A stretch of DNA of 57,262 nt from an uncultured Oscillospiraceae bacterium (GCA_902472555.1 CABROF010000003.1:1-57262); one strand, 5' to 3'; positions 3,479 through 32,659 are shown, numbered from the stretch's first letter. Notes: generated by a model not told the origin, from the letters alone. Numbers and translations are program-made.

Positions 3479-4447
3479 TTACAGCGACAGCATCTTGCTG
3501 GTCTCAATCATCGACTCGTCAATATACTTTTTCATCTGCAGCGCTTCCTCAATATCAATCGCCACATATTGCTCGCCCCTCAGCGCAATAATCCGATTCG
3601 CCTCACCCTGCGCCAGTACCTCTGTTGCTTTGACGGCCATCAAACTGGCCACCACGCGGTCTTTTACCGTCGGGCTTCCGCCTCGCTGCTGGTGACCTAA
3701 AATCGTAGTAGTCGTGGAGATACCGGTAATTTTTCGGATTTCTTCTGCAATCTCCATGGTTCCGCCTACGCCCTCGGCAATAATCACAATATAATGATGC
3801 TTTCCGCGGTTCCGGCAGCCGATAATAGGCTGGATAATATCTGTATCGATATGAAACTCTTTTTCAGGTAAAATGCAGGCCTCGGCGCCGTCTGCAATGG
3901 CACAGTTCAATGCAATATAGCCGGCCCCGCGCCCCATAACCTCCACGACGCTGCAGCGTTCATGTGAAAATGCGGTATCTTTGATTTTGTCAATAGCATC
4001 TTTGACAGTATTCAGCGCCGTATCAAATCCGATCGTATAATCCGTACAGTCAATATCATTGTCAATGGTTGCCGGTATCCCGATGACTTTTACGCCTGCT
4101 TTTGACAAATCTCTGGCGCCGCGGAAAGAGCCGTCTCCGCCGATAACAATAATCGCATCGAGCTTAAATACCTCGGCCATTCGTGCAGCACGATCTACGC
4201 CTTCAGCCGTATTGAACTCTTTGCTTCTTGCCGTCTGCAGAATCGTGCCGCCGCGGCTGATGATTTCAGAAACAGAACGGAGACTCATCTCAAACATTTC
4301 TCCGGACAGAAGCCCTTCGTATCCTTTTCGGATGCCGTATACGGAAAATCCTCTGTAAATGCCGGAACGCACGACTGCTCTGATTGCAGCGTTCATACCG
4401 GGTGCATCCCCGCCGGATGTCAGCACGCCGATTCGTTTTATTGCCAT
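3479..4447 (-). CDS. pfkA: ATP-dependent 6-phosphofructokinase
   Basis: MAIKRIGVLTSGGDAPGMNAAIRAVV, GGDGS and IPATIDND motifs. I chose the start at the second Met (4447) to match the usual PfkA N-terminus. Confidence 0.95.
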   Translation of the reverse strand: MAIKRIGVLTSGGDAPGMNAAIRAVVRSGIYRGFSVYGIRKGYEGLLSGEMFEMSLRSVSEIISRGGTILQTARSKEFNTAEGVDRAARMAEVFKLDAIIVIGGDGSFRGARDLSKAGVKVIGIPATIDNDIDCTDYTIGFDTALNTVKDAIDKIKDTAFSHERCSVVEVMGRGAGYIALNCAIADGAEACILPEKEFHIDTDIIQPIIGCRNRGKHHYIVIIAEGVGGTMEIAEEIRKITGISTTTTILGHQQRGGSPTVKDRVVASLMAVKATEVLAQGEANRIIALRGEQYVAIDIEEALQMKKYIDESMIETSKMLSL

Positions 4448-4477
4448 ATTATACAACTCCATTCCTCGTAAGATACA

Positions 4478-4515
4478 GAAAAATCAATCGGTATGAATTA
4501 CCTATACCGATTGAT
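4478..4515 (-). terminator. Rho-independent terminator of the GH99-like gene 4605..5663
   Basis: Perfect 12 bp arms ATCAATCGGTAT / ATACCGATTGAT (4504-4515 and 4483-4494) with a 9 nt loop. On the minus strand TTTTTCTGT follows. Confidence 0.75.
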
Positions 4516-4516
4516 A

Positions 4517-4545
4517 ATCATACACTATTGTAATAATTTAGACAA
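4517..4545 (-). promoter_or_regulatory. Putative sigma-A promoter of pfkA
   Basis: Minus strand reads TTGTCT (4545-4540), 17 nt, TATGAT (4522-4517). The -10 ends 1 nt before the terminator arm. Confidence 0.5.
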
Positions 4546-4604
4546 CTGCTTTTTCCGGCTCCGGCAGAAAGAAATAAATCAATATGAATTTGAAAAGCAC
4601 CATT

Positions 4605-5663
4605 TCAAAAAAAGCTTTCCGTTGCTGCAATCGGGTAATCATCCGGCAACAGAATAACAGCTTTGTGCGCAAGGGGTTCGTTTATGTACTGGTACACGCC
4701 GTTCTCGTAAACAAAAATACGGTCGCTGCTTTCCCGTCTGTACTGAAAGCCCTCAAGCAATCCTTTTTTTAAAGCTGTATAAGCAACAGTAATATCCTCA
4801 TACCATTCTGGTGTTTCATTTCCGTAGTAATCCAACAAAGGCGCTGTAATATAGCCTTCATTGTTTTGCCTGGGCGTAAACGCCTCAATAGCCGTTTCCT
4901 CGGAGAAGTCATTATAAGAGGTGATCATAATAACAGGTCTATTTTGCTTAATAGCCTCGAGCCATTGGCGAATATAACGTTCCCCGTGGTCGCCCCGACC
5001 GAAATCCCATTTGTGGGTATCCGGCGTTGCAATCCAAAGATGATTGGCATCATGGCAAGGCGTTATGCCGTATACTTCTGAGTTGGGAACCTGTGCATCG
5101 AATGTAAATCCCCATAACCCTTTTCCTTGTATGGACGGATCGTCTGCCCATTGGGATACGACGCCCGTAGAATTACGTACATTAAACAGACGGCTGCTCC
5201 AGTAAAAATAATCAGAATCTGTAAAGGTTATCAAAAGAGGTTTGCCCTCCCACTTGAAATACATATCGCGGGTGCCGTAATTTTCATAAAGATAAAGCAC
5301 TAGTTTTTCGTGTTCTCGTATATACCCATATCGAAGTTCGCCACCTAAAGCAAAGGCGTATGATGGAGCATTGCCCGGCCCTCTTCGATCGATTTCAGAA
5401 ACAATAATATCTGTATTTCTCTTAATCACACCGCTGTCCGCTTCCCAACCGTTTGTGATTTCAAAAATAATAAAATCAATACCGGCCTTCTGCATCCAGT
5501 CAAGGTGGCTTTTGATGACTTCAAGATCTCCGGAACTATATTCACCGAAACGAGTGGAAACTGCTCCGGCTTCTCTTTGCCAATGCAGAGCAGTCTCCGG
5601 ATTATCATGTCCCCACCAGGAAAAATACCATATGCCGATTTGAGAATTATAATATAATGACAT
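4605..5663 (-). CDS. GH99-like glycoside hydrolase family protein, cytoplasmic (no signal peptide)
   Basis: FGEYSSGDLEVIKSHLDWMQKAGIDFIIFE and ITSYNDFSEETAIE resemble the GH99 blocks lGpYSSrD..H...aGI and ITSFNEWHEGTQIE (from memory). It is a paralog of 7550..8698. The start is at Met 9, with GGAGG 7 nt upstream. Confidence 0.7.
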   Translation of the reverse strand: MSLYYNSQIGIWYFSWWGHDNPETALHWQREAGAVSTRFGEYSSGDLEVIKSHLDWMQKAGIDFIIFEITNGWEADSGVIKRNTDIIVSEIDRRGPGNAPSYAFALGGELRYGYIREHEKLVLYLYENYGTRDMYFKWEGKPLLITFTDSDYFYWSSRLFNVRNSTGVVSQWADDPSIQGKGLWGFTFDAQVPNSEVYGITPCHDANHLWIATPDTHKWDFGRGDHGERYIRQWLEAIKQNRPVIMITSYNDFSEETAIEAFTPRQNNEGYITAPLLDYYGNETPEWYEDITVAYTALKKGLLEGFQYRRESSDRIFVYENGVYQYINEPLAHKAVILLPDDYPIAATESFF

Positions 5664-5788
5664 CCAAAGACCTCCAGAAACCTCCAAAAACCTCTATACT
5701 TCACTATTTTTAAAATAATATAACAACCAGCAAAGAAAAGCAACGGGGAAAATTGATTTTGCCCATGTGAATTGTTATAATTAGCTGT

Positions 5789-6742
5789 ATGAATCTGATA
5801 AATGCAGAAATACCAAACGGATGGTTAATGGAAATGGATCGTTTTGCCTCATATCTTTATACGCACACACCGGGTGCCTTGAAAGAGGAACTCCCTTTCA
5901 CCTTGGAAAGCATTGGGTATAAGTGTGTGGAATCCGACACAAATACATATCCATTGGCTGAGAAGATATATTACATCTTGTTTTGTATAGAAGGACAATG
6001 TATCGCAGAAACAACCCATCATCGTTATATAATTGAAAAGAACAGCGCCATTTGTTTTTGTCCGGAGAAAGAGGATACCTTGGAAATCAGTTCGCTCCCG
6101 GGGTGTACCTATCGCTATATTTATTTTCATTCAAGTGCAGCGCGATATTTCAGTAAAATGCTGAATCTTCCTTGCTTAATACAGTTAGATCAACCTGATA
6201 CATCTACCTTGTCCGGCCATTTCGATGAGCTGTATGAAAATGTGGTTTTTGAACTTGGTAATAAGGATATTGCAATCAATATGATTATAACAGGGATTAT
6301 GACCTTTTTTGTGAAGAAATATCAAGAGAAGATTCTTCGGAATTTTCAGCACCCTACTACGGAGAATTATCATTACAGACGTCCTACTCTCCCCGGGAAA
6401 GCGAGTATTTCTCACAAGAATAAAGGCGAAATAAATAAAGTGCTATTATATATTCACAATCAATACAACAAGCAGCTTACTCTTGACGAGTTGAGCCATT
6501 TGATTCATTTTAATAAATGTTATTTTATTAAAATATTTCGAAGTTTGGTTGGAATGAGTCCTTATGAATATATTACGAATTTAAGAATCAATGAAGCTAA
6601 GCAATTGCTGATAAACACAACGTTAAGCATCAATAAGATTGCGGAGCAGATTGGTTTTTTGGATACGAATAACTTCATTCGCCGTTTTCGTTCCCGCACC
6701 GACCTATCTCCTTTACAATATCGGAATAAATATAAAATTTAA
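5789..6742 (+). CDS. AraC family transcriptional regulator
   Basis: C-terminal double HTH: LTLDELSHLIHFNKCYFIKIFRSLVGMSPYEYITNLRINEAKQLL...IAEQIGFLDTNNFIRRFRSRTDLSPLQYR. It is divergent from 4605..5663. The gene is visibly AT-rich. Confidence 0.9.
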   Translation: MNLINAEIPNGWLMEMDRFASYLYTHTPGALKEELPFTLESIGYKCVESDTNTYPLAEKIYYILFCIEGQCIAETTHHRYIIEKNSAICFCPEKEDTLEISSLPGCTYRYIYFHSSAARYFSKMLNLPCLIQLDQPDTSTLSGHFDELYENVVFELGNKDIAINMIITGIMTFFVKKYQEKILRNFQHPTTENYHYRRPTLPGKASISHKNKGEINKVLLYIHNQYNKQLTLDELSHLIHFNKCYFIKIFRSLVGMSPYEYITNLRINEAKQLLINTTLSINKIAEQIGFLDTNNFIRRFRSRTDLSPLQYRNKYKI

Positions 6743-6869
6743 ATTCTTCCTGCAAAAAACAAACTTTGTACTATTCATCTGCGTAATAAATAAATAAAAG
6801 CCTATAAAATCCTTTTTTGTGTCGTTATAATGAAATCAGATAACAATATATTACAAGGAGTGATTGTTA

Positions 6870-7556
6870 ATGGCAAAAATTTTCTTTAAGAAGAAAGGTT
6901 TCATATTCTTTTTGACAGTTGTAGCTGTGTGCGTTTCGTTGTTTAGTACGCTTTGTATTGCATCAGAATCCGCAAACTACGTTGAGAACGGTACATTCAC
7001 ACCGGGTTCCGGCGGCCAATGGGGTGCGATTCCTGGATGGACTACAAGTATTACTCCCGGTACAATGGATCTTTATTTAGGAGATTACAATTACGGAAGT
7101 GCCGACAATCTGCCGGACGGTATTTACTTGGCACTGCGCAAAGAAGCTACTCCGGCAGGAGATCCCGTTTCCGTTTCTCAGACGATTTCCAATCTTCCTG
7201 CAGGTATTTACAAGCTTTCTGCCTGGATGTGGGCCGCAAACAATGTGGAGACTTTCACTATCACCATTTCTGATGGGACGAATGAAAAGACAATTTCCGC
7301 GGCCCTTTCTGAGAAAGGATATAAAGATACTGAAATCGAAATCACTTCCGGCTCTGCAACCATTACAATTACAGCCGACAATGATGTAAAGACCGCCGCA
7401 ATGGATGCCCTTGCCGATGACATTAAGCTGGTCAAAATCGGAGAGATGAATGTGAGAACAGGCGACTCAAATGCATTCGCCATTTCTGCGGCAATAATCT
7501 GTGTGTGTACATCTTTAGTGCTTATTTCAAAGAAAACCAAGGAGTGGGCTTGTTGA
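6870..7556 (+). CDS. Secreted CBM/jelly-roll-like surface protein with C-terminal cell-wall sorting signal (NVRTG)
   Basis: N-terminal signal peptide KKKGFIFFLTVVAVCVSLFSTLCIASES. The domain starts NYVENGTFTPGSGGQWGAIPGW. The C-terminus has NVRTG, a hydrophobic stretch and then KKTKE. ATG at 6870 has AAGGAG 9 nt upstream. Confidence 0.75.
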   Translation: MAKIFFKKKGFIFFLTVVAVCVSLFSTLCIASESANYVENGTFTPGSGGQWGAIPGWTTSITPGTMDLYLGDYNYGSADNLPDGIYLALRKEATPAGDPVSVSQTISNLPAGIYKLSAWMWAANNVETFTITISDGTNEKTISAALSEKGYKDTEIEITSGSATITITADNDVKTAAMDALADDIKLVKIGEMNVRTGDSNAFAISAAIICVCTSLVLISKKTKEWAC

Positions 7557-8698
7557 GAAAGATTCTTACAATTACGATTCTTTTAATATTGCTGACGACA
7601 GTCTCTTGCAATAAAAAACAGGAGGATACACCGCCTATGCGAACCGACACAAATTATTATGATTCCCAAGTGGGATTATGGTATACTGTGTGGTGGGATT
7701 CAGAAGAGGCTGATCCCACCTATTACCAACATCATTGGGTCAAAGAAACACGGGTTAAGCCGGTTAAATTTGGATACTATGCAACCGATGACGATGCGAA
7801 ATTAGACTATGATTTCCGTATGTTTACTCAATGGGGGATTGATTATTTAATACTTGATGACACAAATAATCATTCGGCAGATGCAGGAAATATCGCAAAC
7901 CATATTAATACTATTTTCAAAAAAGCAAAAGCTTTGGGGGATGATGCGCCGAAGTTGTGTTTTGCTGGAGGGCTACCCCTGCTGCAAGGTGATGAAGAAG
8001 GCATGAAGCGTGAAATGGATATTTTTTATAACTATGCTTCACGCTATCCGGATCAAACCTATTTTTGGAAAGGGAAACCGCTCTTTGTTAACTTTACTGT
8101 TCCTGCAAATTATTCTTGGCAGGATACAGAGGATCGTTTCACCATGCGCCCAGCAGGAGGGCATACCTCCGAGGGCTGGGAAACAAGAGAAGAACATAAT
8201 CTGATGGAAATCGGCATGTACGGTTGGGTTTTCGACAAACAATATGACGGCTCCGAGGTTTACGGTATAACCCCCGGCTTCTCCAGAAGTCACAATAACC
8301 TTGCCACCTCTGCTGCTCCCCTTTCCAGGGAAAACGGAGAACGTTACTGTAACGCCTGGCTGCAAGCGATTAAAACCAATCCAGAAATGATTGTGATCGC
8401 CAGCTGGAACGACCACGCAGAAGAAACAGGAATTGAAGCCGTAGCGATTATGAACGGACCTATTGAAGGCAGAGAAGACGAAGCACTCAATCCATTCTAT
8501 TATGAGCAAATCACCCAAGGCTATCTCGCACTCCGAACAGGTTATTTGGAGAATTTCTACTACCGTGCAGAGAGCAGCAAGCAAATTTATCGCTACAACG
8601 ATGGAACATTGAAGAAGGTTTCTTCTGTTCCTGCCATGACTGCTGTGATTGTGACTCCTGATGATTATTTCACTTGGGCCGGCGTTCCTCGCGTATGA
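7550..8698 (+). CDS. GH99-like glycoside hydrolase family lipoprotein
   Basis: Lipobox LLTTVSC. Blocks FGYYATDDDAKLDYDFRMFTQWGIDYLILDD and IASWNDHAEETGIE. The TTG start at 7550 lies 5 nt after GGAG and overlaps the stop of the upstream gene (TTGTTGA). The ORF track start at 7505 is probably too far upstream. Confidence 0.7.
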   Translation: MLRKILTITILLILLTTVSCNKKQEDTPPMRTDTNYYDSQVGLWYTVWWDSEEADPTYYQHHWVKETRVKPVKFGYYATDDDAKLDYDFRMFTQWGIDYLILDDTNNHSADAGNIANHINTIFKKAKALGDDAPKLCFAGGLPLLQGDEEGMKREMDIFYNYASRYPDQTYFWKGKPLFVNFTVPANYSWQDTEDRFTMRPAGGHTSEGWETREEHNLMEIGMYGWVFDKQYDGSEVYGITPGFSRSHNNLATSAAPLSRENGERYCNAWLQAIKTNPEMIVIASWNDHAEETGIEAVAIMNGPIEGREDEALNPFYYEQITQGYLALRTGYLENFYYRAESSKQIYRYNDGTLKKVSSVPAMTAVIVTPDDYFTWAGVPRV

Positions 8699-8724
8699 TT
8701 TTCAAAACATGAAAAGGTGATTTT

Positions 8725-9534
8725 ATGAAAAAATTTTCAATTATTACACTAATATTCATTGTACTTGGGGCAGTTCTCTTTGCTGTGCCGACCATGGCAC
8801 AGCAAACAACCTCTCCGTCTCCAACAAATATGGAAGTGTCGGAACCGTTTAATTATATTGAAAATGGCTCCTTTGAAATGGGTGACGGCGGTCAATGGGG
8901 TGCAATTCCCGGTTGGGATATGAGTCTTCCCATAGGTACCATGGATATTTATATCGGCAACTACTATTATGATGACAAAGAAAGCTTCCCCAGCGATACT
9001 TATATCGCCCTGAGAAAAGAAGCAAATCCTGACGGCGATGCTGTTTATGTAACGCAAACAATTACGGAGCTTCCCGTAGGTGTTTACGAATTTTCCGCTT
9101 GGATGTGGGCTCCCAACAATGTCGAATTTATCTCAATCGAACTTTCCTCCTCCAGCGACTATGAAGAACTCTTTTGTTATCACGGAATGAAGGGTTATGA
9201 TTCAACTGAAATTGCAGTCAAAGACGGAACACTTACAATTACGATTACTGCTGACAACGTACATAAGGATGCGGCAATGGATGCTTTAGTCGACGATCTG
9301 AAACTGATTCAGATTAAAGGCGAAGAAGCGTTTGCAACGCCTACACCCTCGCCTACACCCTCGCCTACCGCTGAGTCTACCAAAGCACCCTCTGCTGCTG
9401 TTACAGCGCACGCCAAACCTTCTGGTTCATCCAAAAACAACGGGAATCTGCTTTTGATCTTTTTATCAGTCGCAGCAGTGGCTTTCGTCGCAGTAGTAAT
9501 TCTTGCAGTTATATTGGTAAGAAAGAAGAAATAG
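8725..9534 (+). CDS. CBM/jelly-roll-like surface protein, paralog of 6870..7556, with PT linker and C-terminal TM anchor
   Basis: Signal peptide, then FNYIENGSFEMGDGGQWGAIPGW...SAWMWAPNNVE. More than half of the residues match 6870..7556 by eye. TPTPSPTPSPT linker. C-terminal LLLIFLSVAAVAFVAVVILAVILVRKKK. Confidence 0.8.
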   Translation: MKKFSIITLIFIVLGAVLFAVPTMAQQTTSPSPTNMEVSEPFNYIENGSFEMGDGGQWGAIPGWDMSLPIGTMDIYIGNYYYDDKESFPSDTYIALRKEANPDGDAVYVTQTITELPVGVYEFSAWMWAPNNVEFISIELSSSSDYEELFCYHGMKGYDSTEIAVKDGTLTITITADNVHKDAAMDALVDDLKLIQIKGEEAFATPTPSPTPSPTAESTKAPSAAVTAHAKPSGSSKNNGNLLLIFLSVAAVAFVAVVILAVILVRKKK

Positions 9535-9560
9535 CGATATCACCGATAAAACCTCGACAT

Positions 9561-9594
9561 TTTACACCATCGGCTTCACTGTCGGTGGTGTAAA
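9561..9594 (+). terminator. Hairpin downstream of 8725..9534 (possible terminator, no clean U-tract)
   Basis: TTTACACCATCG / CGGTGGTGTAAA, 12 bp including one G-U pair, 10 nt loop. Confidence 0.35.
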
Positions 9595-9894
9595 ATATAT
9601 AAAAACAACATTTCCAACGGCGTTTATTCTGAACCGAAGTCAGAATTTTTCGCACAATTCATATTCTCCGGCCAATATTACGTATTTGATCGCAATGACT
9701 GTAAAAATATTCTTCTGCAAGACAATGCCATTATGCTTCCGCCGGAAGACTCCTGCACGGATATCATAAAATATTACGGTTTTATGCCCTCCGGAATATT
9801 CAAAACAACTGATTAATAAAGAATTTCTTTTTTCATTCAGACACAAAGAATCACATTTTTGTGACATTATAAATCATTGCTGTTTGATATCCCG

Positions 9895-9924
9895 TTGACT
9901 TATAATTTTTATGGTAAATACAAT
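9895..9924 (+). promoter_or_regulatory. Putative sigma-A promoter of the SBP gene
   Basis: TTGACT (9895-9900), 18 nt, TACAAT (9919-9924), about 100 nt upstream of the ATG. Confidence 0.4.
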
Positions 9925-10030
9925 CTTTATCAGTCATGATGCATGACGTCTTTCTATTATTGTATGGGTTACATCTGGTACGATATTGTAAAAAGGTTCT
10001 TAAAAAACAGCAGGAGGTAGGAGTAAACGT

Positions 10031-11434
10031 ATGACACAAAAACAGTTCGGTTGGAAAATGAAAATCCGGTCTTGCGGCGTTCTTCTCATTGTGACCGCAC
10101 TTTTGTTCAGCGCCGCAGGCTGCGGCGGCAGAAGTACGGTCAAAGACGGAAATCTTGATCCGGATACAAATCTGGTGGATTTGAACATCTCTGGAAATAT
10201 TGTATTTACCATTAATAATGAAAGCGGAACTGAGACAGAGGGTATGGCGCCGCGGTCTTTTGCGGAAGCTTTTATGAGCGCATATCCGGGAACGACAGTT
10301 ACCGTAAGAGAGATTAAACGCGACCAATATGCGCAGCAGGTTTCAGCAGGCACCATCGGCGATGTCTTCTGGTGTGATGAGCCCATGGCAAATACCTTTC
10401 ATCTGGAGCATAACGCGATTATGCCCTTGGATGCCTATTTGAAGCCTTTAAATATCGATATCCAGCAGGTTTACAAGGGCGCGATAGACTGCGGTATGAT
10501 CGAAGGACGTTTATATATGGCGCCCCGTACAATGTCTCAGCAGACCCTGATCTATAACGTAGATGCTCTGCGGGAGGCCGGTTTTTTGTCTGAAGTCGCC
10601 GCCGGGGATGCGCTTACCTGGACGCGGTTCAGCGAGATCTGCAGGTCTTTGAATCAAAGCAATCCGGACGGTACATATACACAAGTCGGGGCTGCGATGA
10701 AAACCTGGTGGTTCCCTGTGCTGGTATCCTTTTTAGAGGGTTGGGGCGGAACTTGGGTAGATCAAGAAGAAAAACACGTCTCCTTTACTTCAGATCCGCT
10801 TGTATTTCAGGGACTCAGTGAATTATTTCAAGCCATGAACGATGGCTGGCTGTATCCGGAAGATTTAGGTTATTCCGGCGATAAAAATACTGCATACGCG
10901 AATCTGTCGGCTTACAATTACGTTTTCCGCACCTTTGGTACGATTACATGGCTGACACGGTACGGGAACGACTATGCGTCCGCCGCAATCGATTGGGATA
11001 TCTGTCCTTTTCCGCAGATGCCGGTACACAAAGTCGGCGCAGGCGCCACCGGATATGTCGTATATAACCGAACCGCGAATCCTGATACTGCCGCAGCATT
11101 TGCACTGTTCTTTTTAACGGAAGACGGCCAGCTTGCATATCATGGGCAAACAGGTGGAGAGATCCCGCTTCTGAGCACACTGTCGGAGGATCCCTTCTGG
11201 CGCGGACAGGGAACCCCTTGGCCGGAAAAAAACTATGATGCATTTATCAGCTATCCTTCCGCCACAACGCCCGCTACTGCAGTCGTACAGGTTCCGCCGG
11301 TGGTGGCGGACTTGATCTCTGACAATAATCTGAGAACACTCTTCCAGAAAATATTGGCCAATGAAATCAGCATGGAATCCGCCTTCTCTACCTTGGAAAC
11401 CCAAGCCAATGAGCTTTGGGCGCGGATATCTTAA
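10031..11434 (+). CDS. ABC transporter extracellular solute-binding lipoprotein (family 1, sugar type), orphan
   Basis: Lipobox LLFSAAGCGG. The size (467 aa) and composition are typical of sugar SBPs. GGAG lies 7 nt upstream of the ATG. No permease or ATPase gene is adjacent. Confidence 0.8.
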   Translation: MTQKQFGWKMKIRSCGVLLIVTALLFSAAGCGGRSTVKDGNLDPDTNLVDLNISGNIVFTINNESGTETEGMAPRSFAEAFMSAYPGTTVTVREIKRDQYAQQVSAGTIGDVFWCDEPMANTFHLEHNAIMPLDAYLKPLNIDIQQVYKGAIDCGMIEGRLYMAPRTMSQQTLIYNVDALREAGFLSEVAAGDALTWTRFSEICRSLNQSNPDGTYTQVGAAMKTWWFPVLVSFLEGWGGTWVDQEEKHVSFTSDPLVFQGLSELFQAMNDGWLYPEDLGYSGDKNTAYANLSAYNYVFRTFGTITWLTRYGNDYASAAIDWDICPFPQMPVHKVGAGATGYVVYNRTANPDTAAAFALFFLTEDGQLAYHGQTGGEIPLLSTLSEDPFWRGQGTPWPEKNYDAFISYPSATTPATAVVQVPPVVADLISDNNLRTLFQKILANEISMESAFSTLETQANELWARIS

Positions 11435-11484
11435 CAAATCGCATATCAGATTATCTACTATAAAAAAACCTATTCAACAGAGAA

Positions 11485-11524
11485 AAACCGTCTCAAGTGC
11501 ATATCTCATGCAGTGAGACGGTTT
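11485..11524. terminator. Bidirectional terminator between the SBP gene (+) and dnaE (-)
   Basis: AAACCGTCTCA / TGAGACGGTTT 11 bp stem with inner TGCAT/ATGCA pairing. T-rich runs lie on both sides. Confidence 0.7.
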
Positions 11525-11559
11525 CCTCTTTCATGATAAAAATCTCATTACTATCTTAT

Positions 11560-14500
11560 CTATGAAGCAGACATATCACAAAGCGCCGCAAGTTCTTCCA
11601 GGATATCCTGTGTGCATGCAATATAGCCGCCGCATAAAAGCGTTCCTGTATCTTTATTGTATACCGCCACTTCTCGATCTCCGGAAAAAAAGCGAATAAA
11701 TGCCTCCACCGGATTCTTCAGCGCCGCATCGCATCGGAATTCCAGCTTTGCCGCGGCTTCCGGCGGCACGCCGGATCCGGATTCCCGGTGAATTTTAAGA
11801 TAGCTCTCCATGATCTCAATTCTGTCCGGCAATATTTTAGGCGCTTCATCTTCCCGCAGGCTCAGGCGGCCCGTTACAACCACAAGCGCATCGTTTTTCA
11901 AAAAGCCGCCGTATTTTTCATAAATTTTCGGGAACAGGAGCAGTTCAATACTGCCGTACATGTCCTCTAAGGAGGCAAATGCCATCATCGCGTTGTTTTT
12001 TGTTGCTTTTTTCTTAACATTTGTAACAATGCCGCCGATTATTACCTGCATATTATCCTTTACATGGTCTGCCATGGAAACCGCGTATTCAGAGAAAGCT
12101 TCTTCCTCCGCACCCCCGGCCCCCCCCAAATCCGAGGTTTTCAAATTTCTGATCTGAGAGAGCGCTTCCTCATAAGGCTCCAGCGGATGACCAGACAGAT
12201 AAATTCCCAGTACCTCCTTTTCCATTGTCAGCAGCTCGCTTCTTTCATATTCCGGGATATCCGGATAACTGTCCTTTACCGAAGCAATCACATCTTCGCC
12301 GAACATTTCAAAAAATGACAGCTGCCCTTCTACCGCTTTTTTTCGTTCCGCGGAAATACTGTCGATCATTTCTTCAAATGTACACATCAGCTGTGAACGA
12401 TGCAATCCAAAAGAGGAAAATACGCCGGCTTTGATAAAGCTTTCAATACAGCGTTTATTCGAGTCCGTATCCGCGGTTCTTTCACAAAAGTCACGAAAGC
12501 TTTCAAAAAGTCCATTTTTTTGCCGTTCTGCCACAATCTGATCCACAACGCCCATACCTACATTTTTGATCGCGGCCAGCCCGAAGCGGATATTTCCGCC
12601 CGCAACGGTAAATTTTCCCGTACTGCTATTGATGTCCGGCGGCAGCACCGCAATATGCATCGCCCGGCATTCCAATATATACTGCGCAATTTTTTCCGCA
12701 CTGCCCATATAGCTGTTCATCATGGCGGCCATGAATTCAACCGGATAATATGTTTTTAAATACGCCGTCTCATAACCGACTACCGCGTAGCATGCCGCGT
12801 GTGCTTTATTGAACGCATAGCTTGCAAAGTCTGTCATCTGCTCAAAGATGCGGTCAGCCACTTCTTTTGAGACGCCTTTGCGCTGTGCGCCGGCCAAAAA
12901 GTTCACGCGTTCTTTTTCCATAACATCATGCTTCTTTTTTGCCATGGCACGGCGGACCAGATCCGATTGTCCCATGGTATATCCCGCAACATCGCGTACG
13001 ATCTGCATAACCTGTTCCTGGTATACCATACAGCCATACGTAACATTCAGGATCGGTTCCAGCAGAGGATGATCATATTTGACTTTATTTGGATTCTTTT
13101 TATTATCAATGTATTTGGGGATCTGATCCATCGGCCCGGGACGGTACAGTGCAATTCCTGCAATGATATCCTCCAGATTGTCCGGCTGCAGTTCTGTCAT
13201 AAACCGCGTCATTCCCGGACTTTCCAGCTGAAAGATTCCGGCCGTCTTTCCATCGCAGATGGTTTTATAAACCGCTGCATCCTCCATTTTCATATTATCA
13301 AAATCAATTGTGATTCCGTGATTATCCCGAATCATCTCCAATGAATCCTGTATGACGGTCAGCGTTCGCAGGCCGAGAAAATCCACCTTGAGCAGGCCGA
13401 GCTTTTCCAATGTCGTCATGGGGAACTGCGTCACAATACTGTCGCCGTTTTTCTGTACAGGTACATAGTCTGTAACCGGTTCCTTTGTCAGCACCACGCC
13501 GGCAGCGTGGGTAGAAGCATTGCGCGGCATCCCTTCTAATTGCATAGCCGTATCAAGCAAGTCCTTGACTACCGGATCGCTTTCATATTTTTGGCGAAGC
13601 TCTGTGTTCATTTCAATTGCGGCCCGAATACTGGTGGCTTTTCCCGGCGCCATGGGAATCATTTTTGCGATGACGTCCACATCTCCGTAGGGAATATCCA
13701 GCACACGACCCACATCCCGTACAGAGCCTCGGGCAGCCATCGTACCAAAGGTGATGATCTGTGCTACACGGTCTTCTCCGTATTTTTCCGTCACATAATC
13801 AATCACTTCTTTTCGTCTTTCATCACAGAAATCAATATCAAAATCCGGCATACTGATCCGTTCCGGATTTAAAAAACGTTCAAACGCCAGCTGATATTTC
13901 AGGGAGTCAATATTGGTAATTTTCAAACAATACGCCACAAGGCTGCCTGCGCCCGAACCGCGTCCCGGCCCCACCGTAATGCCATGGTCCTTTGCATATT
14001 TGATAAAATCCCAAACAATTAAGTAGTAGTCGGCATACCCCATACGATTGATGACAGACAGTTCGTATTTCAGACGTTCTTGGACCGCCTCCGGCAGGAC
14101 GGCGCCGTATCGCTGCGCCGCCCCCTCATAACACAGCTTTTTCAAATATTCCTCTGCCGTAAGACCATCCGGTTTTTGAAAGTCCGGAAGCACAGTTTTG
14201 CCGAATGTCAGTTCCACATTGCAGCGCTCCGCAATCCGGACCGTATTCTGAACGGCTTCCGGACAGCTGGCAAACAGCGCCTCCATCTCTTCCGGCGTGC
14301 GCAGATATACCTGGTCCGTGTTAAAATGCATCCGGTCCGGATCGTGATAACGCTTCCCCATCTGTACGCACATCAGGATATCCTGTGCCCGGGAGTCCTC
14401 CCGGTTGATAAAATGTACGTCATTGGTTGCAACCAGCGGAATTCCCGTTTCATCTGACAGCTTGATCAGGGCGCGATTCACGCGGATCTGGTCTTCCAGG

Positions 14501-15048
14501 CCATTGCTCTGCAGCTCCAAATAATAATTCTCTGCGCCGAAGATTCCGCGGAACCGCAGCGCCAGCTCTTTTGCGCCCGCATAATCTTCTTTCAGAAGCA
14601 GCTGCGGAAGATCGCCGCCTAAGCATGCACTGCAGCATATAATGCCTTTTGCATATTGAGAAAGCAGATCTAAATCCACCCGGGGTTTATAATAATACCC
14701 TTCGGTAAAAGCCCGGGATACAATTTTTACGAGATTATGATAACCCTCTTCATTTTCGGCAAGCAGCAGCAAATGGCCGCTGTCTCCGTCAAGATTCGCG
14801 GTTTTGTCGAACCTGGTCCGTTTTGCAGTATAGACCTCACATCCGAAAATGGGCTTGATATTTTCTTTCTTACATGCCTCATAAAAATCAATTACCCCAA
14901 ACATGACGCCATGGTCCGTAATCGCAACCGCATCCATGCCTCTTTCCGCACAAGCCTTTGCCAGCGCCTGAATTCTGCATGCACCATCCAGAAGACTGTA
15001 TTCCGTGTGCACATGGAGATGAACAAATCGGGATGTGATTTCTCCCAT
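11560..15048 (-). CDS. dnaE: DNA polymerase III alpha subunit (DnaE type)
   Basis: PHP domain FVHLHVHTEYSLLDGA. Pol III alpha core with GPGRGSGAGSLVAYCL. C-terminal OB region. The start is set at MGEITSRF (15048) after AAGGAGG. The longer ORF-track start at 15249 would overlap the upstream gene. Confidence 0.95.
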   Translation of the reverse strand: MGEITSRFVHLHVHTEYSLLDGACRIQALAKACAERGMDAVAITDHGVMFGVIDFYEACKKENIKPIFGCEVYTAKRTRFDKTANLDGDSGHLLLLAENEEGYHNLVKIVSRAFTEGYYYKPRVDLDLLSQYAKGIICCSACLGGDLPQLLLKEDYAGAKELALRFRGIFGAENYYLELQSNGLEDQIRVNRALIKLSDETGIPLVATNDVHFINREDSRAQDILMCVQMGKRYHDPDRMHFNTDQVYLRTPEEMEALFASCPEAVQNTVRIAERCNVELTFGKTVLPDFQKPDGLTAEEYLKKLCYEGAAQRYGAVLPEAVQERLKYELSVINRMGYADYYLIVWDFIKYAKDHGITVGPGRGSGAGSLVAYCLKITNIDSLKYQLAFERFLNPERISMPDFDIDFCDERRKEVIDYVTEKYGEDRVAQIITFGTMAARGSVRDVGRVLDIPYGDVDVIAKMIPMAPGKATSIRAAIEMNTELRQKYESDPVVKDLLDTAMQLEGMPRNASTHAAGVVLTKEPVTDYVPVQKNGDSIVTQFPMTTLEKLGLLKVDFLGLRTLTVIQDSLEMIRDNHGITIDFDNMKMEDAAVYKTICDGKTAGIFQLESPGMTRFMTELQPDNLEDIIAGIALYRPGPMDQIPKYIDNKKNPNKVKYDHPLLEPILNVTYGCMVYQEQVMQIVRDVAGYTMGQSDLVRRAMAKKKHDVMEKERVNFLAGAQRKGVSKEVADRIFEQMTDFASYAFNKAHAACYAVVGYETAYLKTYYPVEFMAAMMNSYMGSAEKIAQYILECRAMHIAVLPPDINSSTGKFTVAGGNIRFGLAAIKNVGMGVVDQIVAERQKNGLFESFRDFCERTADTDSNKRCIESFIKAGVFSSFGLHRSQLMCTFEEMIDSISAERKKAVEGQLSFFEMFGEDVIASVKDSYPDIPEYERSELLTMEKEVLGIYLSGHPLEPYEEALSQIRNLKTSDLGGAGGAEEEAFSEYAVSMADHVKDNMQVIIGGIVTNVKKKATKNNAMMAFASLEDMYGSIELLLFPKIYEKYGGFLKNDALVVVTGRLSLREDEAPKILPDRIEIMESYLKIHRESGSGVPPEAAAKLEFRCDAALKNPVEAFIRFFSGDREVAVYNKDTGTLLCGGYIACTQDILEELAALCDMSAS

Positions 15049-15098
15049 CGGTCTTTCTGCCTCCTTAATATTTTCGGCGCTCTCCGCAGGAAAGCGGT

Positions 15099-16850
15099 TT
15101 ATGAATATTTTATAATTTCTGTAATTTTCCGCATAACCTTTTCTTTCACACCGGCCGCCCGTTCCGCCGCCTCCATGCGGGATTTTCCTTCGGCGCCAAA
15201 ATAAATTTTGATTTTCGGCTCTGTTCCGGACGGTCTGACGCAGAACCATGCACGCGGTAATTCATAATACAGCACATTCGCTTTCGGTAGTCCGACAGCC
15301 TGTTCCTGCAAAAGCCGCCCCTCGTCATCATACGCATATGCCACATCATTTTCGATATCCTGAAAGATCACGATATTTTCAGGAATTGCCGCTGCCTTTT
15401 CTCTGCGCAGCGTCTCCATGACCTGCTGCATTTTCACGCGGCCGATTTCACCCTTTAGATTTACCGATACCTGCATTTCATAAGAATATCCATATTTCTG
15501 ATAAATCTCCTCCAGGCCGTCAAACAGGGACATATTTCGCTTTGCATATTTTGCCGCCGCTTCTGCCAGCAAAGCGCAGGAAGCAACCGCATCTTTATCT
15601 CGGGCATAAATTCCGGCCAGATAACCGTAGCTTTCCTCAAATCCGAAAAGAAAATGCTCATCGCCCTGCTCTTCCCGTAAGACAATCTGTTCTCCGATGT
15701 ATTTAAAGCCTGTAAGAACATCCGTATATGCGATTCCGTTTGCTTCACAAATTCTGCGGGCAAGCCGTGTAGACACAATGGTAGAAACAACAAACGGGTT
15801 TTCTGGCAGTGTTCCGTACTCTTTCCGGCCCGTAATGATATGCTCCAATAAAATGGCTCCGATTTGATTCCCGTTCAGCATCTCATATTCACCGCTCTGA
15901 TTGATTGCATAAGCACCGGTTCGGTCCGCATCCGGGTCTGTAGCCAGAATCAAATCCGCCCCGGTTTCTTTTGCTGTCTGAATCGCCAGTTCAAACGCAC
16001 CTGGGTCTTCCGGATTCGGTACACGGACAGTAGGAAAATCACCATCCGGAAGCATCTGAGAGGCTACATAAGAAACCTGCCGGAATCCGACTGACTCCAA
16101 AAGCGGCGGTACCCATTTCCCGCCTGCGCCATGCAGCGGCGTATAAACGATTTTGAGGCCCGCCGCATTTCTGTGCAGCAGGTCGCGGTTGACAAAAACC
16201 TTCTTTACTTCTTTATAGTAGGAGTTACGGACAGATTCATCTACAGGTTTAATTTTTCCCCGCATGGAAAAATACGTATAATCAAAACCTGCCAACTTCG
16301 TATAATCCGTCATCTGCTGAAGTGCGGCAACAATTGCTTCACAGTTCTGCGGTGACAGCTGAGCTCCGTCACTGCCGTAAACCTTATAGCCATTATATTC
16401 CTTAGGATTATGGCTGGCGGTAATCATAATTCCTGCCGCACAACGCAGCTTTCTTACAGAAAAGGATAAAACAGGAACCGGACAGATATCCGGATGAAGA
16501 TAGACTTTTATTCCGTGTCCGGCGAAAACAGAAGCCGCTTCCTGCGCAAATTCTTTCGAATAATGGCGGCTGTCATATCCGATTACAACGCCCTGTCCCC
16601 CGGTATTCTCCTGCAGCAGGCATTTGGCAATCGCGTAACTGACTTTCCTAACAACATAAATATTGATTCGGTTTGTCCCCGCTCCCATCAGTCCCCGGAT
16701 TCCCGCAGTACCAAACTCCAGCTCTTTATAAAAGCGGTCCCGGATTTCGTTTTCGTCGGACTCGATGCGCATTAATTCCATGCGCGTATTTTTATCAAAA
16801 TAAAATCTTGTACTCCATTCCGCGTAAGCCCGTTCAATTTGCTGATCCAT
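15099..16850 (-). CDS. Phospho-sugar mutase (phosphoglucomutase/phosphomannomutase family)
   Basis: Active-site loop TASHNPKEYNGYKVY. Length 583 aa, PgcA-like. AAGGAG lies upstream of the ATG. Confidence 0.9.
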   Translation of the reverse strand: MDQQIERAYAEWSTRFYFDKNTRMELMRIESDENEIRDRFYKELEFGTAGIRGLMGAGTNRINIYVVRKVSYAIAKCLLQENTGGQGVVIGYDSRHYSKEFAQEAASVFAGHGIKVYLHPDICPVPVLSFSVRKLRCAAGIMITASHNPKEYNGYKVYGSDGAQLSPQNCEAIVAALQQMTDYTKLAGFDYTYFSMRGKIKPVDESVRNSYYKEVKKVFVNRDLLHRNAAGLKIVYTPLHGAGGKWVPPLLESVGFRQVSYVASQMLPDGDFPTVRVPNPEDPGAFELAIQTAKETGADLILATDPDADRTGAYAINQSGEYEMLNGNQIGAILLEHIITGRKEYGTLPENPFVVSTIVSTRLARRICEANGIAYTDVLTGFKYIGEQIVLREEQGDEHFLFGFEESYGYLAGIYARDKDAVASCALLAEAAAKYAKRNMSLFDGLEEIYQKYGYSYEMQVSVNLKGEIGRVKMQQVMETLRREKAAAIPENIVIFQDIENDVAYAYDDEGRLLQEQAVGLPKANVLYYELPRAWFCVRPSGTEPKIKIYFGAEGKSRMEAAERAAGVKEKVMRKITEIIKYS

Positions 16851-16885: not shown

Positions 16886-18487
16886 TCATGATCTGCCGGA
16901 TTCCGCGGCTTTCATAGATAAAAATACCACGGTGACACCCAGCAGTACGACCGCCACAACCGCTGCCAAAATATAAATTTTCATCTCACTGTTGTTGCCG
17001 GTTAAAAAGCCCGGCGCCGGCGTAACTTCGGTGCTCACCTTCTCAAAATATATGATGTCCGAATCAAACACATTCGCCAGGGAAAGAGATAATCCCGATT
17101 CCATCAGCGCAGCGCCCGTGATATGGAGTAGGTAATTTTCATTGTCCTGACTCCGGACTCGATACGTCACATTTGGATCTAAACCGATTAATTTGACGAT
17201 CTCCGTATCTCGTTCCGATTCAGGACGAAATACAAACAAAATTCCGCGGGCATTTTCCGAATCATAATACGCGCAGCCATCCCACCCGCCGCCGTCCGGT
17301 TCCGGCAGGACATGATACAGGGCCGCATTCTGAATATACGGCTGAATCACCGTTTGGTAAAGCTGCAGTTCGTCTTTAATTACGCTGGCATAACCGGCTG
17401 TGCTGCCGGCCACTTCCTTTACATTTCCCATCATGCAGCTGCGCATTGCATACAGTGGCGCATCCTGCGTAGTTCCCGCCGATAGGCTCTCATAAGAACA
17501 GGAAATTTGCGTACTTGGATAAAAATAAGAGAGCTGATAAAAATACTTCCGGAGTTCCAGCGCGCTTTGCTTCTGTCCTACGGCCTGCGTACAGTCAAAT
17601 AAAGCAGCAGGTGCATGAAATGACAGCCACTGTTTTAGCAGCAGGCTGCCGTTTTCTTTGCTTCCGGAATATGTGCCGAAAAAAATTCCGGGCGCCTGAA
17701 TCGTATCCTTTGCCGGAACCGTAAGCTCCGGCGGTTTCTGTGCGCCGATAGGATTATACGCTTTTTCATATCCCCAAAACAGGCCGTGCCGGTGATTTTC
17801 TTCGGATTCCGCCGTCCGTGCTTTCTCCCGATCAGCAAAAACCATATAGAATTTTCGGTCTTGATGAAATGCATTGGAAGCCGTGCTGCTGCCATCTAAG
17901 ATTTGTTCTGAGAGAACAGACGGCACCGGATCTGAAAACACAGTTACGCCTGTAGAAGAAAGATTTGTGATTGCAATATAATGATATAAAACATGCATCG
18001 ATTGATAAATCTGCCATGAAGAAACCATACGCAGCGTTCCATCCTCGCTCTCAAACAAGAGTACAAGCGTACGTTCATCCTCGTTTCCATACTGATTCAC
18101 CGAATCAAAACGCCAGGTAATTTCATGAATTGCCGAATCCTCCGCGTTTTGATAATAAATGGGAGAAAAAAGAACTTGCTCTTCCGTAATCCACTCAAAG
18201 GCAGCATTTTTGTCTCTTAAAGAACGCAGTACGGCCCTGCCGTTTACCGAAGCAACCGTAGCCGATAGGTCTGCACTGTCAATCACCCATTCCTGTTCAG
18301 CCGGCACAGACGGCGTAGAAGATGGTCCTGCGGAGGGCGAAGCAGTTACAGTTACGGCAGTCTCCGCGGCAGGAGCAGAACTTTTGGTTTCAGAATACGC
18401 AGAAAGCATGCGCGGACCCGCCCAGGCATACAGCAATACGGCACAGGTCAATACGATACTAAAAATCAGTTTTCCCGCCCTTTTCAT
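16886..18487 (-). CDS. Hypothetical bitopic membrane protein with N- and C-terminal TM segments and a large extracytoplasmic region
   Basis: N-terminal anchor KLIFSIVLTCAVLLYAWAG. Ser/Pro/Ala-rich linker. C-terminal IYILAAVVAVVLLGVTVVFL. The segment GILFVFRPESERDTEIVKLIGLDPNVTYRV...GAALMESGLSLSL faintly recalls GH36 C-terminal beta-sandwiches. The start is at the Met preceded by GGAGGG. Confidence 0.6.
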   Translation of the reverse strand: MKRAGKLIFSIVLTCAVLLYAWAGPRMLSAYSETKSSAPAAETAVTVTASPSAGPSSTPSVPAEQEWVIDSADLSATVASVNGRAVLRSLRDKNAAFEWITEEQVLFSPIYYQNAEDSAIHEITWRFDSVNQYGNEDERTLVLLFESEDGTLRMVSSWQIYQSMHVLYHYIAITNLSSTGVTVFSDPVPSVLSEQILDGSSTASNAFHQDRKFYMVFADREKARTAESEENHRHGLFWGYEKAYNPIGAQKPPELTVPAKDTIQAPGIFFGTYSGSKENGSLLLKQWLSFHAPAALFDCTQAVGQKQSALELRKYFYQLSYFYPSTQISCSYESLSAGTTQDAPLYAMRSCMMGNVKEVAGSTAGYASVIKDELQLYQTVIQPYIQNAALYHVLPEPDGGGWDGCAYYDSENARGILFVFRPESERDTEIVKLIGLDPNVTYRVRSQDNENYLLHITGAALMESGLSLSLANVFDSDIIYFEKVSTEVTPAPGFLTGNNSEMKIYILAAVVAVVLLGVTVVFLSMKAAESGRS

Positions 18488-18565
18488 TCGGTCCCTCCGA
18501 CTCTCACTCATACTCAGACCTGAATAGTATATAACAAATTCCTAAATAATTCAAATCAGATCATC

Positions 18566-20507: not shown

Positions 20508-20756
20508 GCTCTGCCAGTCCTCCTGCCAAATAAATTTTAAAAAAACATTTATGTTATATATTATATATACTTTTTTCATAATTACAAGAGATATCTTTCA
20601 TATAAAAGCGTACCGCCGTACCTGCGGCGGCACGGCAGCTGGAATCGCGCTGTAAGTGCGCGCTTATTTTATAAACAGAATCATTCTGATTGACTTTATT
20701 TTTATAATACGTTTTTATAACGCGTTCAACAAAAATTAAAAATTTTCACAAAGGGG

Positions 20757-28610: not shown

Positions 28611-29852
28611 TTATTCCGTTAGCGCTCTGTCGATCCCGATATTTTCTGCACATTCCGCAGTAATGCGAACCATTGAAACGCCGCTTTCATTTTCAAACCA
28701 TTCCACTTTTGTATCGAGAATTTCGGCGGCATCCGGAATTTTGTCATTAAGAAGATCCATTGCTTTCAGCTCTGCCCGGTCGGCCGCTTCCGCCGGCGAA
28801 ACGGTAATCACATACTGCGCCATCTCATATTCCATACGTTTTGATATTCCGATGGGAAGCGCCGTGCCGCCCGGCAGCGTAATATATTCTTCCACATAAA
28901 TGCTGTTTGCGTTTTGATAGCTGCTGTCCTCTACCCAAGGCAGGATTTCTTTACCCGGCAGCGGAATCCGCAGACCGAACAGCAGGATTGTTTTTTGGGT
29001 GTTCTCATTCCCGGTCGGCCTGTAAACCGTAACCTCGGTCTCCACCGCAGCCTCTGCGGAATACCAGACGATCCCTCGAACTGTTCCGCGTGCATGTACA
29101 TAACGTGTCAGCGCGTTTTCTTCCGGCAGATCCTCTTTCCGGACCGTTCCGGAGATAATAATCTGCCCCTTTTGTACGGGAACATCCTCCTGCAGAACGG
29201 GAACGCCTTGTTCTACAACAATTTTACGAATCACCGCATCCTTTGCAGCAACAATGTCACACGGCATATCCTCCGGAACCTCGGAAGTGGTGCCCGGCTC
29301 ATAAAACGTGCCGCGTTTTAGTTCAATATACATTTTTGTTCCTTGTTTTTTTACCCCGACCCAGGCCAATTCCGGCTGACCTGCAAGCAGCTGCTCCGAC
29401 AGTTTTTGTGTGCTTACGCTGTCTACCAGGATTCCCGGCTGGATTCCTAAATTTTTCAGGATCGTTTTGGTGCGGAGAATATCCTCCGCCTGACCGCCCG
29501 TCACTTCCACGGACCAAAGCATGGAACTCAAAAGCACAAAAAGTGCACACAAAATCACGGCGCCGACGGCAAACAGCTTTCTTTTTCTATAACGCCGCAG
29601 AAAAAAAAGAAAGCCGTTCTTTTCCAAAATATGTACGCTGCATCTGCTTTTCAGCGCAACCTGTTTGAGCTTTTTTTTGAAATCTTTGGCATATAAGCAC
29701 AGTTCAAAATGATTGGGATCTCTCCGTGTCAGATCCCATACGGAAATTCCGCGCCGCAGACAGATATTCAAAAATTTTTCCGGCTGCCTGCCTCGGATCC
29801 GAATCCGTACATAGCCGCAAAAATAACGCCATATTTTATTCAATCTCATCAT
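28611..29852 (-). CDS. yqfD: Sporulation protein YqfD
   Basis: N-terminus WRYFCGYVRIRIRGRQPEKFLNICLRRGISVWDL. Central TM segment. ATGA overlap with yqfC. Confidence 0.85.
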   Translation of the reverse strand: MMRLNKIWRYFCGYVRIRIRGRQPEKFLNICLRRGISVWDLTRRDPNHFELCLYAKDFKKKLKQVALKSRCSVHILEKNGFLFFLRRYRKRKLFAVGAVILCALFVLLSSMLWSVEVTGGQAEDILRTKTILKNLGIQPGILVDSVSTQKLSEQLLAGQPELAWVGVKKQGTKMYIELKRGTFYEPGTTSEVPEDMPCDIVAAKDAVIRKIVVEQGVPVLQEDVPVQKGQIIISGTVRKEDLPEENALTRYVHARGTVRGIVWYSAEAAVETEVTVYRPTGNENTQKTILLFGLRIPLPGKEILPWVEDSSYQNANSIYVEEYITLPGGTALPIGISKRMEYEMAQYVITVSPAEAADRAELKAMDLLNDKIPDAAEILDTKVEWFENESGVSMVRITAECAENIGIDRALTE

Positions 29853-31834: not shown

Positions 31835-31857
31835 TTGGATAACCTCCTGTTTTTCCG

Positions 31858-32589: not shown

Positions 32590-32659
32590 AATAATCTCCA
32601 ATCCCGCACCTGCACTGACCGTAAATATGGATTCAGTATAATCAAATATCCGGGCTGTG

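Follow-up and report, generated by a model that had tools for sequence, protein, structure and literature searches.

A conserved five-gene cassette of GH99/GH71-like enzymes and carbohydrate-binding-like surface proteins between dnaE and pfkA of an uncultured Oscillospiraceae bacterium

Introduction

Why are dnaE and pfkA, neighbors in related genomes, separated by 7.1 kb in an uncultured Oscillospiraceae bacterium, and what might the genes between them do? The question is raised by a 57,262-nt stretch of DNA from this organism (GCA_902472555.1, contig CABROF010000003.1), the whole of which is hereafter called the window. In this window, pfkA (3479-4462) and dnaE (11560-15249) flank an interval (4463-11559) filled by six intact open reading frames (ORFs). 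An initial annotation, made from the sequence, had read the interval as an inserted glycan locus, composed of enzymes resembling glycoside hydrolase (GH) family 99, surface proteins resembling carbohydrate-binding modules (CBMs), an AraC-type regulator and an orphan solute-binding protein (SBP), and all six ORFs that it listed are present at the coordinates given there. The comparisons described below indicate that five of the six genes (approximately 4605-9534), encoding a cytoplasmic enzyme (A), an AraC regulator, a surface protein (C), a lipoprotein enzyme (D) and a membrane-anchored protein (E), form a conserved unit, and that the locus is real, conserved and uncharacterized. The initial annotation knew of no such Firmicute cassette, and literature searches likewise found no published description of one. 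With a probability of roughly 0.6, we consider that this unit is an old and horizontally mobile accessory cassette, which landed in the ancestral dnaE-pfkA junction and serves as an AraC-controlled glycan-harvesting module using an uncharacterized GH71/99-like clade.

Results

Insertion at the dnaE-pfkA junction

One genome per species was scanned with PfkA for the closest representatives. These were Ca. Egerieisoma faecipullorum, UMGS593, HGM11336 and MGYG-HGUT-00728, whose PfkA and DnaE are 84-90% and 65-69% identical, respectively, to those of the window. The gene order PGM-dnaE-pfkA-DUF5685-DnaJ is common to the window and all four (L009, L010, L012 and L017), in which no more than 31-80 bp separate dnaE from pfkA. 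In two more distant genomes (L021 and L025), dnaE is also located directly upstream of pfkA, and thus the two genes are adjacent in all six relatives carrying both; none of the six interval genes was found at these six loci. Since dnaE and pfkA are adjacent in relatives without the six genes, the adjacency is ancestral and the 7.1-kb block is a derived state, an insertion, as had been proposed.

The base composition points in the same direction. The guanine-plus-cytosine (GC) content is 41.6% in the cassette (4605-9534) and 48.3% in the window outside it, where the lowest 4.9-kb segment has 43.3%; the five genes of the cassette have a GC at third codon positions (GC3) of 0.38-0.43, the flanking genes one of 0.47-0.59. 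The AT-rich part, however, stops near 10000, and the SBP gene is host-like (49.7% GC, GC3 0.52); the AT-richer block of about 7 kb described at first is therefore correct for 4605-9534 but not for the SBP gene. Synteny and typical composition in all relatives had been named as an outcome that would speak against a separate accessory locus; instead, the block is absent from the relatives and its GC content is atypical. A site empty in relatives, together with atypical composition, gives the block the character of a genomic island. The marks of a mobile element are missing, as neither an integrase or transposase gene nor bounding direct or inverted repeats were found.

Conservation of the five-gene unit

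Copies of the cassette were recovered by homolog look-ups and a metagenome scan. Seven other contigs (L091, L092, L093/L094, L099, L100, L101 and L102) carry all five genes, or those for which the contig is long enough, and an eighth (L089) carries only the genes for A and AraC. The copies occur in at least three other chromosomal contexts, beside rplU-rpmA-obg, beside GH3 and FeoB genes, and beside a reverse transcriptase (RVT) gene and PGM; gene A is divergent from araC in some copies and convergent behind E in others. The similarity in DNA between the window and the other cassettes is approximately 71-75% and extends from about 4629 to about 9368, stopping before the spacer and the SBP gene. 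No copy holds an SBP gene or any transporter gene inside the unit.

Between copies, non-synonymous differences per site (pN) are 0.10-0.27 and synonymous differences per site (pS) are 0.71-0.87. The synonymous sites are saturated, so that no dN/dS ratio is given for most gene pairs and dating by dS was rejected. The low pN against the saturated pS shows the cassette to be old, with strong purifying selection acting on every gene. Housekeeping genes, which might tell horizontal gene transfer from vertical descent, were also looked for, but the cassette-bearing contigs share none with the window.

Two enzymes of the GH99/GH71-like superfamily

Gene A (4605-5663, minus strand) encodes a protein of 352 residues without a signal peptide, predicted to be a cytoplasmic enzyme of the GH99/GH71-like superfamily. 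Gene D (7550-8698, plus strand) encodes a related enzyme of 382 residues, predicted to be a lipoprotein, with a signal ending in a lipobox-like TTVSC (...LLTTVSC). The two proteins are 34% identical (E=2e-55), and their orthologs in other cassettes are 80-86% (A) and 73-81% (D) identical. The initial annotation counted three GH99-like paralogs, but tblastn of A and D over the whole window gives only these two genes.

The Pfam check suggested there for GH99 (PF16317) gave a divided answer, A scoring 34.1 bits against a cutoff of 33 and D 24.6 bits, below it. For GH71 (PF03659), both proteins score 16-17 bits against a cutoff of 34 and thus do not belong at the family level; NCBIfam gave no informative match for A, C, D or E, and phmmer of A alone against PDB sequences gave no match and hence no GH99 structure. 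When 5.8 billion proteins were searched by word index, only ten relatives emerged; in an exhaustive profile search, 103 clusters had E<1e-30 and 3148 had E<1e-3. These numbers suggest a modest-sized clade within a large superfamily. The family profile, when run against PDB, matched the GH99 enzyme of B. xylanisolvens (BxGH99; E=3.5e-16) and OpGH99A (5ngw; 5e-4), and no GH71 chain.

Structure prediction and Foldseek searching had also been suggested, and both were carried out. The AlphaFold (AF2) model of A has a predicted local distance difference test score (pLDDT) of 82 and a predicted template-modeling (TM) score (pTM) of 0.86. Its top 36 Foldseek matches are all GH99 (E about 1e-10, query-normalized TM 0.52-0.61, 14-18% identity), followed by OpGH99A and A. 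nidulans GH71C. The (beta/alpha)8 barrel of the model is superposable on GH99 structures; past residue 300 it has only four short strands, and not the C-terminal beta-sandwich of GH71.

The putative catalytic dyad consists of D252 and E255 in A (motif SYNDFSEETAIE) and of D288 and E291 in D (motif SWNDHAEETGIE). In the profile alignment, NDFSEETAIE of A lies on NEWHEGSQIE of BxGH99, D252 corresponding to E333 and E255 to E336, which are the general base and the acid, respectively, of BxGH99 (PMC6055899). A reads NDFSEE and D reads NDHAEE, and thus the base position is Asp in both while the acid Glu is retained; the enzymes have the D-x-x-E of GH71 and not the E-x-x-E (EWHE) of GH99. In GH71, which is inverting, the characteristic first residue of the dyad is Asp, whereas in GH99, retaining through a 1,2-anhydro sugar, it is Glu (PMC12394665). 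Of 85 full-length relatives, 84 have the preceding Asn (N251); at the base position, 46 have D, 19 have E, nine have N and six have G, and at the acid position, 70 have E and 14 have D. Because the dyad is D-x-x-E, not E-W-H-E, and the Pfam match is marginal or below the cutoff, endo-alpha-1,2-mannosidase activity cannot be assumed for A and D on the basis of these sequences. The two are here filed as an uncharacterized clade of the GH99/GH71-like superfamily; of the original GH99-like label, the fold and the conserved position of the dyad hold, but neither the first dyad residue nor a firm Pfam membership does.

GH99 enzymes (BtGH99, BxGH99 and human MANEA) rank first in both the Foldseek and the profile search. 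With them, the window enzymes share the single (beta/alpha)8 barrel, several N-terminal aromatic motifs and the catalytic motif N-[DE]-x-x-E-x-[TS]-x-I-E, which follows the same strand in an equivalent position. Besides the Asp, an identity of 15-17% at a TM of about 0.6, and the marginal or failed Pfam membership, the window enzymes differ from GH99 in an extra C-terminal beta segment of approximately 45 residues, in a family-specific DDTN motif, and in occurring as lipoprotein and cytoplasmic forms in a Firmicute. The GH71 alpha-1,3-glucanases (AnGH71C) share the D-x-x-E dyad (PMC12394665) but differ in the C-terminal beta-sandwich and at the level of family score. The Prevotella enzyme PmGH99 (CDD GH99_GH71_like) is likewise a single barrel with the GH71-type Asp and is closest to GH99 in sequence, but its dyad is DYGE, not the NDxxEET of the window, and its activity on alpha-glucan is weak (PMC13421300). 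The GH71/99-like class is, according to these authors, essentially unstudied, and was referred to by them as unexplored space of carbohydrate-active enzymes (CAZymes; PMC13421300). Both GH71 and PmGH99 differ from the window enzymes in setting, a Gram-positive cassette with stand-alone CBM-like proteins here as against a polysaccharide utilization locus (PUL) of Bacteroidota. Literature searches on OpGH99A, "GH99-like" and WbsX as a hydrolase yielded nothing relevant.

Distant relatives of A and D are fused to SLH, PG_binding_1, dockerin, laminin-G, FG-GAP and type IX secretion system (T9SS)-tail domains, a mark of secreted or surface enzymes. Two relatives encoded in one genome (P0007 and P0009) adjoin genes for GH2, GH31, rhaM, a WbsX-like protein and AraC regulators, and another (P0006) lies within a polysaccharide-biosynthesis cluster with WcbI, RgpF and epimerase genes.

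Surface proteins C and E

Gene C (6870-7556, plus strand) encodes a secreted protein with one CBM-like jelly-roll module and a sortase-type sorting signal, and gene E (8725-9534, plus strand) a protein composed of a signal peptide, a CBM-like jelly roll, a proline- and threonine-rich (PT-rich) linker and a C-terminal transmembrane anchor followed by KKK. C starts with a signal peptide and ends with NVRTGD, a hydrophobic stretch of 20 residues and KKTKE, which is the arrangement expected of a sortase substrate, and N-x-x-T-G-D is kept among its orthologs. The signal is of a type resembling NVQTG of C. difficile CbpA, the cleavage of which is disputed (PMC4155245). These localization signals, as well as the presence of two CBM-like surface proteins, agree with what had been noted from the sequence.

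Over the jelly-roll core, C and E share 55% of their residues. Neither has a meaningful match in Pfam or NCBIfam, and no CBM family of Pfam matches them or their homologs. A search with E gave 19 clusters, all on Clostridia-type contigs, and some of these relatives have faint precomputed matches to PF28587/DUF8441. Every C/E-type relative examined with enough surrounding contig sits in this cassette. In the AF2 model of E, the beta-sandwich core (approximately residues 100-200) has pLDDT above 90. Foldseek with this model found CBM61, CBM16, CBM4-2 and CBM22; the chains of the first three match at a target-normalized TM of 0.59-0.72, with TM 0.72 and E=4e-7 for CBM61 (2xom). The fold of E is thus predicted to be the beta-jelly roll known for CBM4, CBM16, CBM22 and CBM61, while a match to any CBM sequence family is missing. 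Alignment of C/E-type proteins revealed an invariant N-terminal motif, NGxF..G.GGQWG..GW, which we take to resemble the start of CBM4_9-type modules, for which NGxFE..G..W is typical. C and E differ from all these families in that they stand alone, in one to three tandem copies, and are anchored through a sortase-type signal or a transmembrane segment. The C/E domain is filed as a CBM-like domain without an assigned family.

The number of modules in C is one in the window and in L101, two in most copies and three in L102. A form of 391 residues, composed of two almost identical tandem modules and found on a 129.6-kb contig among others, coexists with the form of 228 residues within the species' own 90% protein cluster (P0016 and P0200-P0202). 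The difference is either a real polymorphism in copy number or a 489-bp repeat collapsed in short-read assembly.

Regulator and transcription signals

The araC gene (5789-6742, plus strand; gene callers start at 5828) is divergent from A, as had been noted, and encodes an AraC/XylS-family regulator, which has both the C-terminal double helix-turn-helix (HTH_18, E=9e-20, 71 bits; HTH_AraC, E=7e-18, 65 bits) and the N-terminal ligand-binding, cupin-like domain of this family (AraC_binding, 23 bits against a cutoff of 21.1). It is a part of the conserved unit, and no cassette copy of sufficient length lacks it. Within the divergent control region of A and araC (5664-5827), the araC promoter, TTGATT-17-TGTTATAAT (5753-5781) with (TG)TTATAAT as the -10 element, is conserved among four diverged loci. 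At 5660-5701, three tandem copies of the 10-nt unit ACCTCCAxAAAC are specific to the window; on the minus strand, they form repeated Shine-Dalgarno-like GGAGGT elements just upstream of the ATG of A.

The promoter region of the C-D-E operon (6743-6869, plus strand) includes AAAAGCCTATA (6796-6806), invariant in the alignment of four loci and located 19 nt upstream of an invariant -10 box, TA.AAT (approximately 6826-6831). The exact 11-mer AAAAGCCTATA occurs once in the window and is regarded as a candidate activator site for AraC. A second AAAAGCCTATA upstream of A was sought, but only matches with two mismatches were found, at the frequency expected by chance. The TTG start of D overlaps the TGA stop of C by 7 nt, with AAGGAG 5 nt upstream, and translational coupling had been suggested on this account; the overlap is real but is not kept in the orthologs of the cassette, whose calls for C and D lie 7-80 nt apart, and any coupling is specific to this genome. 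A terminator-like hairpin (9559-9596, plus strand; inverted repeat I18) closes the operon.

Terminator-like hairpins are found at both ends of the interval, where they had been noted. The one at 11484-11524 is bidirectional and lies between the SBP gene and dnaE. The other, a 12-bp-stem hairpin with a T-run (4483-4516, minus strand), was read from the sequence as terminator-like for A; as the pfkA start follows after only some 20 nt, the hairpin would be located in the pfkA leader. The only promoter-like site before pfkA, TTGTCT-17-TATGAT (4545-4517), is just upstream of this hairpin, and in the relatives with the gap of 31-80 bp, TAGTATAAT overlaps the end of dnaE. Transcription of pfkA in the window could occur through read-through from A, through attenuation or from a leader-proximal promoter.

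Orphan solute-binding protein gene

Approximately 0.5 kb of non-coding DNA lies between E and the last gene of the interval, as had been described. Its main part, the spacer at 9597-10030, is AT-rich (34-38% GC); before the SBP gene, it has TTGACT-18-TACAAT (9895-9924), which resembles a promoter, and the ribosome-binding site AGGAGG. A small ORF (9640-9867, minus strand; 75 residues) in this spacer may be due to chance or be a gene remnant; considered as a remnant, it matched no family. The SBP gene (10031-11434, plus strand) encodes a sugar-type lipoprotein (PF01547, E=5.5e-22) with the lipobox SAAGC, and no permease or ATPase of an ATP-binding cassette (ABC) transporter is encoded anywhere in the window.

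The closest relatives of this SBP are only about 50% identical; those in other gut Clostridia are encoded by tandem genes beside efp (L096, 5555-8540; L097 and L098, 8001-10986), with no permease or ATPase nearby. This arrangement suggests a subfamily of orphans that share a distant transporter or have a role other than transport. As the SBP gene never occurs with the other cassette copies, is host-like in composition and has orphan relatives in unrelated contexts, its membership in the system, assumed at first, is rejected; it shares the intergenic site as a passenger of its own, belonging to an orphan-type subfamily. A link with the cassette is possible but unsupported.

Surrounding genes

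The window represents the core chromosome of a spore-former, as it carries genes for YqfD, SpoIVA, two DUF881 proteins, EngA, PlsY, ack-pta and nrdD/nrdG (housekeeping genes at 28611-29852, 31070-32601 and 41699-43177). The surrounding genes fit a Clostridia host, and the cassette sits in a housekeeping region. Just past PGM, a gene at 18630-20579 (minus strand) encodes a 649-residue protein without a solid Pfam match (only a borderline HL_N-beta), and its neighbor (16886-18511) encodes a GH36 C-terminal domain. The 649-residue protein is 53% identical over 285 aligned residues to the product of a 554-residue gene (L006, 14118-15782; GCA_054269015.1), which directly adjoins a GH2 gene, the GH99-like lipoprotein P0007 and an AraC regulator. 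These two genes may be a second glycan-related pair.

Discussion

The genes of the cassette can be arranged into a working model of glycan harvesting. The AraC-type regulator would sense a sugar or oligosaccharide through its cupin domain and activate the promoter of C-D-E, and probably that of A too. C, anchored to the cell wall by its sortase-type signal, and E, standing on its PT-linker stalk from the membrane, would bind a polymer at the cell surface with their CBM-like jelly rolls, and lipoprotein D, a predicted (beta/alpha)8 glycanase, would cut the bound polymer. The fragments would then be imported by transporters encoded elsewhere, one of which the adjacent orphan SBP may feed, and the cytoplasmic paralog A would cleave the imported oligosaccharides further. 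Given a D-x-x-E dyad as in the inverting GH71 alpha-1,3-glucanases, the chemistry judged most likely by analogy would be the endo-hydrolysis of an alpha-linked hexose polymer, such as fungal or bacterial alpha-glucan or alpha-mannan.

Among known systems, the cassette may be compared with the Gram-positive PULs (gpPULs; Sheridan et al. 2016, PMC5320581). Common to both are an AraC-type regulator, a surface-exposed glycanase and carbohydrate binding, the latter two predicted for the cassette, in a variable accessory locus of gut Firmicutes. By the definition given there, enzyme and regulator stand together in one locus here as well (predicted A and D with AraC), but the carbohydrate transport system is missing, the window having only an SBP of the unlinked, orphan type and the other copies not even that. 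In addition, the binding modules of the cassette are separate anchored proteins and are not fused to the enzyme, and a cytoplasmic paralog of the surface enzyme is included.

Several observations weigh against the harvesting model. The cassette itself has no transporter, nor any other glycosidase that would take the products to monosaccharides, and the SBP is not conserved with it. The similarity of the enzyme model to GH99 structures is only moderate (TM about 0.6, 15-17% identity), and the dyad base is N or G in 15 of the 85 relatives. The Prevotella GH71/99-like enzyme with the DYGE dyad was weakly active on all substrates tested (PMC13421300). With respect to the anchoring of C, SrtB of C. 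difficile did not cleave NVQTG-type signals in vitro (PMC4155245), and the window contains no sortase gene. Finally, the position of P0006 in a biosynthesis cluster and the SLH and peptidoglycan-binding fusions also fit a remodeling of the cell envelope.

Such remodeling is the strongest of the alternatives, though we regard it as unlikely. D, together with A acting on cytoplasmic or lipid-linked precursors, would trim the secondary wall polymer, capsule or exopolysaccharide of the cell itself, C and E would bind this self-polymer, and the cassette would modify the surface or biofilm instead of serving nutrition. In addition to the fusions and the genes for WcbI, RgpF and epimerase around P0006, the lack of a transporter favors it, and WbsX-type GH99-like genes are typical of O-antigen loci. 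The cassette, however, moves as a self-contained unit without a glycosyltransferase or flippase, P0007 and P0009 adjoin catabolic GH2 and GH31 genes, and in Firmicutes, AraC regulators with a cupin sensor are typical of catabolic loci (gpPULs, PMC5320581).

That D and A are bona fide GH99 enzymes, that is, endo-alpha-1,2-mannosidases or mannanases acting on yeast alpha-mannan or high-mannose N-glycans through the 1,2-anhydro-sugar mechanism, is in our estimation quite improbable. Bacteroides and human GH99 are indeed the best structural and profile matches, A is just above the Pfam cutoff, and conservation extends to the acid residue and to the E further down the motif. Against this, identity is only 15-17%, D, at 24.6 bits, misses the cutoff of 33, the search with A alone retrieved no GH99 structure, and the base position, at which Glu is near-universal in GH99 and Asp the hallmark of inverting GH71 (PMC12394665), is Asp in both window enzymes and varies among D, E, N and G across the family. 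An ancestral block lost from the compared relatives, or a decaying remnant without coordinated function, would agree with the missing integrase, transposase and flanking repeats and with the distance of these relatives (DnaE 65-69% identical), but is highly improbable in view of the adjacency of dnaE and pfkA in six of six relatives, the atypical composition, the same cassette at other loci, and intact ORFs under strong purifying selection.

Within glycan harvesting by a mobile cassette, which remains our preferred reading, a more far-reaching version can be put forward tentatively, with the odds against it. A and D would represent a third, functionally distinct lineage beside GH71 and GH99 (N-D-x-x-E-E-T) with a new linkage specificity, perhaps inverting, and C and E a new, cassette-specific CBM family (DUF8441-like), together making up a minimal, transporter-less, mobile unit of surface glycan harvesting in gut Clostridia. 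If true, characterization of the cassette would give CAZy a further activity or subfamily and enlarge the CBMs by one family.

The locus is a clean case of an accessory cassette splitting a conserved pair of housekeeping genes. Since a surface enzyme, its cytoplasmic paralog, two binding-like proteins and a regulator are inherited as one unit, it is also a compact test case, in which the substrate can be sought in parallel through binding (C and E), induction (AraC) and hydrolysis (D and A). The cassette could help to connect the Asp/Glu switch of the dyad with the catalytic mechanism. It would also show in what way some gut Clostridia gain access to a glycan niche, possibly that of fungal or bacterial alpha-glycans, now credited mainly to Bacteroides.

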